In this document: positions 19,214 through 21,073 of the stretch, piece by piece
How the letters are laid out: each line of letters begins with the position of its first letter
How positions within the stretch are numbered: position 1 is the stretch's first letter
DNA from: an uncultured Pseudomonadota bacterium
Lineage (GTDB): Bacteria > Pseudomonadota > Alphaproteobacteria > Rs-D84
Direction of reading: 5' to 3'
NCBI GenBank assembly: GCA_902771095.1
Contig: CACXVH010000005.1
Span: forward strand, 8,085 to 72,084
Length of the DNA: 64,000 bases
Program-made: the position numbers and the translations under genes
Notes under the pieces: model-generated
Databases searched by the model: none
Told to the model about the DNA's origin: nothing
What the model saw: the letters and a program-made list of their open reading frames with translations, nothing else

Positions 19214-21073
19214 ATGTCAACAAGGTGTAATTTTTTTGTCAACACGCTGAAACCCGCAGAAACCTACACACACACACACACACACACACACACATGTAAT
19301 CTATTGCTAAGCATAAAACAAATCGGAACGATTTGTTTTGCAAATTTTTTTAGAGTTTTCGCGACCCCGATTTTCGCATTGATTTTTACATTTGGCGATA
19401 TAACATCTGCGATGGCGGTTTCTTGTGATTCGGTTGAAGACGGTTCAGTTGTTTATTATAATGGTAATTCCTACGAGGGGCCTTTCTCTGTAAGTTTTTC
19501 ATATGGCTCTGTAAACGGTATAGGTATATGTAGCATAGATGCTGGTTCTTCCTATGGGGAATTGGGCAGTCCTGATACCGTATCTGGTAGCGGTAGAAAC
19601 AGAAAAAATTGTTGGTGTCAAATAACCGATATTGATGGAACTAGTAATTCTTCACCAAATGCGGTATTTCTGGAAAGTTATGCTACTGTTGGTGTATGTC
19701 GGAATAGCTGTGCTGAAGAATGTGCGAATGTGTTAGCAGGGGACAGAGGTATAAGGGCTACACTTTATTCGGATCCTGATGCTAGTGATATGTGTGAGGG
19801 ACAGCCATGGGGGGGGCCTTGTAATACCGAGATATCGCTTGTGACTTTGGATCCAGATATTTGTGAAGAGTGGACGGAAAATGAAAGTGTCGATGGGCAA
19901 AATTGGACGGTTACTCTTATGCCAGGTGGTAATGAAACATTATCTGGGGTTGGGGGGTGTTTTGATGTTGCTGGTAATTATCGAGGTGAAGTATCACAAA
20001 CCCAACCATCGTCAGGAACTGGTTCAGACTGTTGGTGCGGTATAGGGATGTATAATGATGGAAATACAACATATTTGTCGGGAATGATATCATGGTTTTA
20101 TTTTGGGGACAATTGGGGGGATCCTTCGTCTTGTGAAGCAGATTGTCCCTGGGCGTGTGTAGAAATAATGCAACAAGGTTTATGTAATTTTGTTGAAAAC
20201 GCAGACGAATTAAGTATGTGTATTTATGAAGAACCGTCCGCATACAGTGTTTCGTATGATTGCGGTTATAATGGCAGTGGTTCCCCATCTGATCCCAGCA
20301 GCTATTCTTCTGGCGATACTGTTTATACACAATCAAGCAGTGCTTGTACACCGTCACCAGGTTATGAATTTTCTTATTGGGATTGCAACACAGGAACAAA
20401 TATAACCCCAGGTGATTCTTTCACGATATATGATAATACTACATGTACTGCGAATTATGATTATTACGGTGTTGGGGGTGGTGACTTTTATGTTCAATAT
20501 TCTTGTGGTATGGGCAGTGGTTCCCCATCTGATTCCAGCAGCTATTCTTCTGGTGATACTGTTTATACCCAATCAAGTAGCGATTGTACGCCACCAACTG
20601 GTCATCAGTTCGCTTATTGGGATTGTGACGGGATGATTGTAGATGCGGAACAAGATTTTACAATATATGATAATACTACTTGTGCCGCGCAATACACAGC
20701 AATAAAATACAATGTTTCTTATTCGTGTGGGGTAGCAACTGCTGGAAGTGCGCCATTGACAACAGTGGTGTCATATGGGGCATCGTTTGCGCCAGCAGCG
20801 AACACCTGTGGCATCCCAGGGGGATATAGCGGGTTTGTTGGTTGGGCAGTAAGTGGGACTAATGATGTAAAACCTGCTGCAACCGCGTTTAATTGGAATT
20901 ATACCGAAGGTAAAACTTTAACCGCACAGTTTACCCCAAATACAATATCCTTATCTTGGGACGGGGGTGGGGCACCACAATCTTGTTCGTATGGTGATAC
21001 ATTTAATGTCCCAACCCCACCATCCAGGACAGGTCATGTGTTTGTGGGATGGAAAGTGAATAGTAATCCATAA
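19214..21073 (+). CDS. secreted Cys-rich surface protein: 2 CWC modules plus 4 Listeria-Bacteroides (Flg_new) repeats; the (AC)14 tract lies in its 5' end
   Basis: ATG 19214 follows a purine-rich RBS. The signal sequence is ...FATPIFALIFTFGDITSAMA. CWC triplets lie at 19610-19618 and 20030-20038. Repeat endings are GYEFSYWD, GHQFAYWD, GFVGWAV and GHVFVGWKV. Confidence 0.7.
   Translation: MSTRCNFFVNTLKPAETYTHTHTHTHTCNLLLSIKQIGTICFANFFRVFATPIFALIFTFGDITSAMAVSCDSVEDGSVVYYNGNSYEGPFSVSFSYGSVNGIGICSIDAGSSYGELGSPDTVSGSGRNRKNCWCQITDIDGTSNSSPNAVFLESYATVGVCRNSCAEECANVLAGDRGIRATLYSDPDASDMCEGQPWGGPCNTEISLVTLDPDICEEWTENESVDGQNWTVTLMPGGNETLSGVGGCFDVAGNYRGEVSQTQPSSGTGSDCWCGIGMYNDGNTTYLSGMISWFYFGDNWGDPSSCEADCPWACVEIMQQGLCNFVENADELSMCIYEEPSAYSVSYDCGYNGSGSPSDPSSYSSGDTVYTQSSSACTPSPGYEFSYWDCNTGTNITPGDSFTIYDNTTCTANYDYYGVGGGDFYVQYSCGMGSGSPSDSSSYSSGDTVYTQSSSDCTPPTGHQFAYWDCDGMIVDAEQDFTIYDNTTCAAQYTAIKYNVSYSCGVATAGSAPLTTVVSYGASFAPAANTCGIPGGYSGFVGWAVSGTNDVKPAATAFNWNYTEGKTLTAQFTPNTISLSWDGGGAPQSCSYGDTFNVPTPPSRTGHVFVGWKVNSNP
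19266..19294 (+). repeat. (AC)14A dinucleotide microsatellite inside the 5' coding region
   Basis: Counted directly. It is flanked by gctgaaacccgcagaaacct (19246-19265) and gtaatct (19296-19302). Confidence 0.95.

Follow-up and report, generated by a model that had tools for sequence, protein, structure and literature searches.

A probable slipped-strand phase-variation cassette with an (AC)n tract in secreted-protein genes of Rs-D84 alphaproteobacteria

In Helicobacter pylori, the surface-protein genes oipA, babA and sabA carry CT repeats in their signal-peptide codons and are switched by slipped-strand mispairing, and many repeat-number alleles of the Hop genes have been recorded among strains (PMC10564699). 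In this study, a similar arrangement was analysed in DNA of an uncultured Rs-D84 alphaproteobacterium (assembly GCA_902771095.1, contig CACXVH010000005.1, positions 8,085 to 72,084 of the forward strand); the whole stretch of 64,000 nt is referred to as the window. Two secreted-protein genes of the window, hereafter locus 1 and locus 2, are each headed by a cassette that consists of a conserved 20-nt block (GCTGAAACCCGCAGAAACCT) and an (AC)n tract. The results suggested that each cassette is most likely a translational slipped-strand phase-variation (contingency) switch. The mechanism itself is known from pathogens of the stomach and throat, and only the host lineage and some of the details are new here. 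No such switch for this lineage was found in the Enterousia genome paper (PMC12306168) or in the literature searched on phase variation.

The closest analogue of the AC cassette is the group of H. pylori Hop genes with (CT)n repeats (oipA/hopH, sabA, sabB, babB and hopZ). In both systems, a dinucleotide repeat lies in the 5' region that codes for the signal peptide, where slippage shifts the frame ON or OFF, and several paralogous surface-protein genes with the repeat are present in one small genome. Unlike the Hop genes, the cassette has AC rather than CT as its unit, places a polar (Thr-His)n stretch ahead of the hydrophobic core, contains a nucleotide-conserved 20-mer that is read in two frames and, in most loci, has a terminator-like hairpin 3' of the tract. 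The host also differs, being an uncultured Rs-D84 alphaproteobacterium, as do the products, which combine InlB B-repeats with a Cys-rich 'CWC' domain and have no Hop porin domain. Because the regulated proteins gave Pfam matches to Flg_new and Flg_new_2 only, and hence no homology to the described products, the AC cassettes act like the Hop and opa switches but are not members of those groups.

The opa genes of Neisseria carry (CTCTT)n in their signal-peptide codons at about 11 independently switching loci, most of which are OFF at any time, and the repeat is cleaved off with the signal peptide, which leaves the mature protein unchanged. The location of the repeat within leader-peptide codons and its removal with the signal peptide are shared with the AC cassette. 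Unlike the AC cassette, however, opa has a pentamer unit that codes for part of the hydrophobic core, and its products are beta-barrel adhesins; to our knowledge, no conserved block or hairpin module accompanies it. Opa phase variation in Neisseria has been described along with the contingency loci of Haemophilus influenzae, Neisseria and Campylobacter, in which localised hypermutation near the 5' end of surface-structure genes acts at many loci and creates combinatorial phasotypes (PMC11868660). These loci have tetranucleotide or poly-G tracts within open reading frames (ORFs), so that both unit lengths and gene classes differ from those of the AC cassette; moreover, switching rates have been measured in these organisms, whereas the AC cassettes are known from natural alleles only. 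Among the Alphaproteobacteria, simple sequence repeats (SSRs) are reported to be associated with host adaptation in Bartonella (PMC11466379). The likeness is that these loci, as in the AC cassette, are alphaproteobacterial SSRs. We know of no sequence relation between the two. Of the features that mark slipped-strand contingency loci, the following were found in the cassettes: a perfect 5' repeat, a unit that is not a multiple of three with early stops in the other frames, several loci per genome, intact OFF alleles and, at a sister locus, a repeat number that varies between otherwise identical sequences.

Frame use, phase and length of the AC tract

Searches for exact matches to the 20-mer followed by (AC)n recovered 14 loci from about nine metagenome-assembled genomes (MAGs) and 26 metagenome contigs, and overall more than 45 loci were collected from MAGs of Candidatus Enterousia and its relatives and from rumen and faecal metagenomes. 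The matching MAGs are named Candidatus Enterousia or 'uncultured Alphaproteobacteria' and come from rumen, horse, sheep and human-type samples. At least five loci are present in MAG JAZROY01 and at least three in the organism of the window, namely the two in the window and the sister cassette on contig L056, which belongs to the same assembly as the window clones. In the window, the 20-mer occurs in two exact copies, as against 0.01 expected by chance, and the only two (AC)n tracts of five or more units on the plus strand lie in the cassettes (an unrelated (GT)5 stands at 5393-5402). Furthermore, no (AC) tract of at least five units was found outside cassettes in about 295 kb of DNA examined, in which only one (GT)5 occurred. 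At all loci read, the order of the parts is constant: extended -10 element, Shine-Dalgarno (SD) sequence, start codon, 3 to 12 codons, 20-mer, (AC)n, signal peptide and secreted protein. An earlier note on this DNA had claimed an ON/OFF switch architecture from locus 1 and had taken two copies in one window as a sign of a dedicated switch module; both claims are strengthened, since the order of start, tract and signal peptide holds at the two window loci and every other locus read, and the same 20-mer and (AC)n head at least two unrelated protein families in those MAGs and in many metagenome contigs.

According to the mechanism proposed here, the promoter and SD would drive initiation at a start codon 8 to 36 nt 5' of the block, and ribosomes would pass the block and the (AC)n tract, read as (Thr-His)n, before they reach a Sec signal peptide with its hydrophobic core and cleavage site. 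Slipped-strand mispairing at replication would add or remove one AC unit and rotate the downstream frame because the unit is 2 nt long. One tract-length class in three would join the start codon to the gene (ON), and the other two would run into stops at most 16 nt after the tract (OFF). Moreover, the repeat would be cleaved off with the signal peptide, so that the mature protein would not be affected by tract length. With several loci per genome of less than 1 Mb, each switching independently, the InlB-B-repeat/Cys-rich proteins, whether secreted or at the surface, would form a combinatorial repertoire.

The frame use of the cassettes was observed directly. Two frames of the block are free of stops, and in each of about 43 cassette rows the start that belongs to the SD lies in one of these two and stays open to the end of the tract. 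The starts of the AETRRNL frame stand at offsets -12, -21, -24, -33 or -36 and those of the LKPAETY frame at -8, -11, -20, -23 or -32; in the third frame of the block, which contains TGA, only two ATGs were found, both of them secondary and closed. All of some 20 different leader peptides continue without a stop across block and tract. The tract is translated, since several loci have no usable start 3' of it: in loci L002 and L015, the stretch from the tract to the hydrophobic core is free of in-frame ATG, GTG and TTG codons, and in L007 and L019 an in-frame start after the tract comes only inside or after that core, too late for a signal peptide. In addition, an SD was present for 22 of 36 window genes, with none before TTG 19304 of locus 1 and a weak AGGT before ATG 28150 of locus 2. 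A start downstream of the tract, which the earlier note had named as the observation that would make the tract irrelevant to frame, is therefore missing altogether from L002 and L015 and is without an SD at TTG 19304.

The tract reads (Thr-His)n in either frame of the block, the codon right after it is always in the gene frame, and stops close the two other frames within 16 nt. The gene is ON at tract lengths of 1 mod 3 where the start is in the AETRRNL frame and at 2 mod 3 where it is in the LKPAETY frame. From ATG 19214, which is preceded by the purine run AAGGAAAGGGAAAAAG, the frame of locus 1 reads MSTRCNFFVNTLKPAETY(TH)4TCNLLLSIKQIGTICFANFFRVFATPIFALIFTFGDITSAMA, followed by VSC at the mature end, and the ORF is open to 21073, as the earlier note had claimed when it described an LKPAETY-(TH)4T-CNLL frame running into a signal sequence and a Cys-rich protein. 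Locus 1, with a tract of 29 nt in the LKPAETY frame, is ON, again as proposed, and both alternative frames stop at most 16 nt after its tract. Locus 2, with a tract of 27 nt and TTG 28058 in the AETRRNL frame, is OFF relative to the upstream start; ON would need 25 or 31 nt, that is, one AC unit fewer or two more.

Among 35 distinct locus/allele rows, 11 were in frame (ON) and 24 out of frame (OFF). All 19 of the 19 complete OFF copies have an intact ORF of 243 to 573 codons, which indicated that they are silent copies and not decaying pseudogenes. Polymorphism confined to the tract was found at the sister cassette, for which seven assemblies have 900 of 900 identical bases 3' of the tract and tract lengths of 33 nt (L054-L056), 31 nt (L057, L064 and L065) and 23 nt (L058). 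In L055, L058 and L064, the leaders are identical as well, and their tracts of 33, 23 and 31 nt represent all three phases. A change of the tract without substitution in the flanks is the prediction of localised hypermutation, and we infer slippage as the cause, by which switching would be frequent and reversible. The comparison of tract length across genomes that the earlier note had suggested is in this way borne out at the sister locus; the two loci of the window show a single length in assemblies that are 100% identical and so uninformative on this point. Furthermore, protein clusters at 90% identity contained in-frame forms with differing Thr-His counts beside forms called from the downstream TTG, and diverged orthologues also vary in their tracts (39 nt in L010 vs 33 nt in L027; 31, 23 and 15 nt in L008, L037 and L025). 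L061-L063 were rejected as different alleles, being the same DNA with a 35-nt tract and differing gene calls. Over all loci, tract length ranges from 13 to 43 nt with a median of 29, and the tracts are nearly all uninterrupted, with few broken or shortened ones (L030/L035; P0042 and P0027).

Alternative explanations for the cassette

Some observations weigh against a strict ON/OFF switch. The ON fraction of 31% equals the one third expected if frame is irrelevant, and it gives no sign of selection for ON. The two loci of the window have one length each (29 and 27 nt) in three assemblies that are 100% identical over 2.8 to 6.8 kb, and L042, L043 and L051-L053 are 100% identical to the window with the tracts included; these assemblies may be re-assemblies of one sample or clone and are therefore uninformative on tract variability. 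In the hairpin-type loci, an in-frame TTG lies three codons after the tract, and both OFF-frame stops are within 5 nt of it. A start at this TTG would yield a normal-looking, canonical signal peptide (MLSPKQIGTICFA...SFA, followed by DPD), and gene callers choose it in about 35 clusters. Together with the TAATG at locus 2 (28148-28152), in which the stop of the out-of-frame leader overlaps ATG 28150, the position of these stops suggests that OFF may mean 'low' through reinitiation.

The main rival explanation draws on the same points, the ON fraction included. It holds that the leader is an upstream ORF coupled to the gene, that the true start lies 3' of the tract (TTG 19304 or ATG 28150) and that the point at which the leader ends sets reinitiation, so that expression is graded. 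We regard such a graded switch as unlikely: the TTG has no SD, in the four loci named above a start after the tract is missing or comes too late, inside the hydrophobic core or past it, and the in-frame phase fuses the 'leader' to the gene anyway, so that the fusion product exists. Moreover, ATG 28150 is a lineage-specific change from Ile to Met; the homologues keep Ile (GNLLIAFLSTIFIVSGAFA), and ATG 28150 is therefore not a conserved start. The TAATG overlap may have evolved to bypass the switch by coupling translation of the gene to that of the leader. On look-up, no record was found for the protein called from TTG 19304, the out-of-frame form of locus 1, and likewise none for P0118.

A neutral microsatellite within a 5' segment that gene conversion keeps uniform, with the out-of-frame copies being dead, would agree with conservation that peaks around the tract and falls off on both sides, with the same gene bodies found on unrelated upstream regions at the cassette (L059 vs L060 and L057 vs L058) and with the shared tract length of identical clones. 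This explanation is nevertheless very improbable given the 19 intact out-of-frame copies, the start codons that avoid the stop-containing frame of the block and the tracts of 13 to 43 nt, nearly all uninterrupted, that last across species, where neutral repeats would decay. A frame-independent role of the tract, either through Z-DNA formation or spacing that would tune the promoter or as an unstructured CA-rich translational enhancer, fits the position of the tract about 40 to 70 nt downstream of the putative transcription start site, and in Escherichia coli a CA-rich stretch that follows the start codon is known to raise translation. Such a role is the least credible of the explanations considered: no -35/-10 spacer comes near the tract, as 50 to 66 nt separate the TTGACA-like motif from any -10-like hexamer after it, and the stops in both other frames, the frame rule of the start codons and the missing downstream starts would all be left unexplained. 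An SSR switch of the promoter-spacer type, such as the TA repeats of H. influenzae hif, was rejected for the same distance between the flanking hexamers and because the tract lies 3' of the SD and start codon.

Conserved parts, hairpin and palindromes of the cassette

The features of the two cassettes in the window are listed in Table 1. The block, tract and tail of locus 1, the ATG with its purine run and the second copy with (AC)13A were all recovered with the coordinates and sequences given in the earlier note.

Table 1. Coordinates of cassette features and genes at locus 1 and locus 2 of the window.
Feature	Coordinates	Strand	Remarks
GC-rich palindromic elements (G5-6/C5 runs, CCAC-GAAG-GTGG hairpin)	19033..19125	+	5' of locus 1 promoter
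Putative promoter of locus 1: AAAAAACACTT motif, TTGCGG (19159-19164), 17-nt spacer, TGcTTCAAT (19179-19187)	19150..19187	+	position compared with conserved module
SD-like purine run AGGAAAGGGA, 7 nt 5' of ATG 19214	19197..19206	+	
Start codon and leader codons MSTRCNFFVNT	19214..19245	+	ATG in LKPAETY frame of 20-mer
Conserved 20-nt block GCTGAAACCCGCAGAAACCT	19246..19265	+	two GAAACC repeats 10 nt apart; TGA in third frame
(AC)14A tract, 29 nt, coding (Thr-His)n	19266..19294	+	ON at 29 nt; then tGTAATCT
OFF-frame stops TAA 19297-19299 and TAA 19308-19310, flanking in-frame TTG 19304-19306	19297..19310	+	
Terminator-like hairpin in signal-peptide codons (KQIGTICF)	19314..19350	+	12-bp AT-rich stem, GAA loop, T-run
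Locus 1 gene	19214..21073	+	68-aa pre-sequence (to 19417, ...SAMA/VSC), two Cys-rich CWC domains, InlB B-repeat domains
GC-rich palindromic elements	27920..27995	+	5' of locus 2 promoter
Putative promoter of locus 2: AAAAAAACCACTTTT motif and extended -10 TGATATAAT (28025-28033)	27995..28033	+	homology of position
SD AAAGGGGA (28045-28052) and start codon TTG 28058	28045..28060	+	
Leader ORF in present phase: LTKKVVNFFESAETRRNL(HT)4..QVIF, then stop; ends at TAA 28148-28150	28058..28150	+	out of frame with gene
Conserved 20-nt block GCTGAAACCCGCAGAAACCT, second copy	28091..28110	+	exact
(AC)13A tract, 27 nt	28111..28137	+	then gGTAATCT
Locus 2 gene, callable from ATG 28150 (MAFLSTIFIVSGAFA/DPD...)	28150..28908	+	InlB B-repeat, then CWC domain

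Across the cassettes, the upstream module consists of AAAAAACACTTTT, about 16 nt, TATGGTATAAT (extended -10) and a further 20 to 30 nt, which separate the -10 from the SD and are sometimes interrupted by a small G/C-run palindrome. The SD in nearly all other cassettes is AAAGGAG, 6 to 9 nt 5' of ATG. A scan for strict consensus sigma-70 sequences found no promoter at locus 1 or locus 2, and for this reason both window promoters were assigned only from the module conserved across loci. On the 3' side, the tract is followed by [T/G/A]GTA[A/G]T.. and then by the hydrophobic core and the AxA-type cleavage site of the signal peptide, and the sequence TGTAATCTATTGCTAAGC after the tract is kept in most hairpin-type loci. 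Variants of the block were seen as the peptides AETRRKL, AQTRRTL and RKPAELY, and diverged or variant blocks stand at L019:1574 and L010:18, with GCGCAAAGCCGCAGTTTTCTAT 5' of (AC)7A and CAAACCCGCAGAAACCT 5' of a 39-nt tract. The existence of such copies implies that exact-match searches under-count the cassettes. Rfam gave no match above threshold; a sub-threshold match to SCARNA7 on the minus strand over the tract, reading (GT)n, is probably a repeat artefact.

The block, about 10 nt 5' of it and about 50 nt 3' of the tract are conserved as nucleotides. Upstream indels alter the frame between loci, with the block being read in two frames, and in the two window cassettes the 20-mer is preceded by sequence that can be aligned only in patches and with indels. 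For the uniformity of the 20-mer, we favour gene conversion centred on the tract. Dual coding, with two starts in two frames at one locus, was rejected as the reason for its conservation, as it fits few loci only (L003, L007, the L010 type and locus 2). A reading of AETRRNL as a Tat motif was also rejected, since half of the loci use the other frame and the RR lies 10 to 20 residues from the hydrophobic core. In the two pairs of loci with unrelated upstream DNA, the gene bodies are identical over 1000 nt and the junction falls at the block or start codon; compared with L058, L054 is without 69 nt that include the -10 box. These junctions are either recombination or deletion events or assembly artefacts, that is, chimeras at the repeat of about 110 nt.

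The hairpin begins about 20 nt 3' of the tract, has the sequence AAAACAAATCG-GAA-CGATTTGTTTT and runs into a T-rich stretch. The scan marked it as terminator-like; it is stable, with a free energy of -11.6 kcal/mol and z = -4.1, and was present in 27 of 37 distinct downstream sequences. Its covariation is limited, with 97% of cells paired and three pairs that change on both sides, and the T-richness is also expected from the Phe- and Ile-rich codons of the signal peptide. It could act as an attenuator that ends transcripts when ribosomes stop before it (OFF) and is melted by translation (ON). In one subfamily (L031, L032, L038 and L022), a second perfect hairpin, AGGGCTT-GCT-AAGCCCT, was observed between the tract and the main hairpin.

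Palindromes of G5-7/C5-7 runs (CTCCCCCnnnGGGGGAG, CCGAC-GAAG-GTCGG and GAGGGGGGT) were observed just 5' of the cassette promoters or within the 5' untranslated region. G/C palindromes were also found at L008, L009, L014, L025, L037, L038 and L057-L061, and runs of at least five G or C in 23 of 41 distinct upstream regions of cassettes; in the window, paired G/C-run palindromes occur only at the two cassettes (Table 1). They could be elements similar to miniature inverted-repeat transposable elements (MITEs) or repetitive extragenic palindromes (REPs), insulators or G-quadruplex formers. It is conceivable, although doubtful for the combination as a whole, that the cassette is a portable two-layer switch module of about 110 nt that joins three properties. 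As its parts, the block and about 50 nt after the tract would be kept as nucleotides in two frames and in front of unrelated families; the hairpin would couple phase to transcription, forming and ending the transcript when OFF and being melted when ON; and the cassette with its upstream G-run palindromes would be a recombination hot spot that shuffles gene bodies among expression sites. The interest of the system would rise if these extra features prove functional.

Secreted proteins, host and significance

Both window proteins contain InlB B-repeats (Flg_new) and the Cys-rich CWC domain, in opposite order. The earlier note had called the two genes paralogous; the shared domains support this, and the relationship is only a distant one (BLASTP E = 7e-07 and 3e-06), with the domain order differing. 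With 98 clusters at 30-60% identity to the locus 2 protein, the InlB/CWC family is large and fast-evolving. The window also encodes a third member of 1226 aa (37790-41470, minus strand) that begins with an ordinary signal peptide and lacks the tract, and many homologues likewise start with MKKFF..., an ordinary signal peptide, without a tract. At least two unrelated families stand behind the same block and tract, namely InlB/CWC proteins and a 319-aa Gly/Ala-rich protein (L002, L015 and L040); in addition, L003 encodes a longer protein of 573 aa with a CWC-type domain at its end. The CWC domain (FSYG..G...C....CWC....C...C..CA) was observed in the C-terminal half of the locus 2 protein (28450-28905) and also in the locus 1 protein and the protein of 37790-41470. 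It was predicted with pLDDT >90 and had no PDB match by sequence or by Foldseek fold search. A conserved ...FR.A.FG... motif forms the C-terminus of many family members. The products have a Sec-type signal peptide and InlB B-repeats, and they may be exposed at the surface; no anchor or localisation evidence was found.

In related strains that are about 99% identical in the SIMPL gene (L044, L045 and L048-L050), the segment 19003-21097, which comprises the whole locus 1 gene and its cassette, is missing, and ligA directly follows SIMPL. The switchable gene itself is therefore a presence/absence polymorphism. A 2-kb segment 5' of the SIMPL gene (16246-18242) is also missing in these strains. In the window, about 147 nt of unrelated GC-rich sequence (21737-21883) stands in ligA in place of about 258 nt, which leaves two ORFs (21114-21884 and 21897-23012), and LigA is intact with 664 aa in L043, otherwise 100% identical to the window, and in the related strain L044; the split is likely to be an assembly chimera or a foreign insertion. 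Furthermore, the ORF 5918-7141 gave a match (E = 6e-81) to PF12236, the family of phage head-to-tail connector (portal) proteins, which suggests that this small genome contains a prophage or a region resembling a gene transfer agent.

The window encodes BamA, MurJ, LigA and RNase E/G, which indicates that the organism is diderm. Candidatus Enterousia, an uncultured lineage of the order Rs-D84 from the gut of farm animals and humans, has genomes mostly below 1 Mb and lacks the tricarboxylic acid cycle and respiration (PMC12306168). The cassette has a practical side, as the 20-mer and AC repeats are a sequence-searchable marker with which phasotypes can be read directly from existing metagenomes, and as gene callers mis-start the cassette genes, with about one third of the family annotated from the TTG after the tract. 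Organisms under fluctuating receptor-directed pressure, whether from host immunity, phages or a partner cell, have as their signature a repertoire of secreted proteins that is driven by repeats at several loci. In this respect, the switch repertoire argues for an intimate host- or cell-associated lifestyle of Enterousia.

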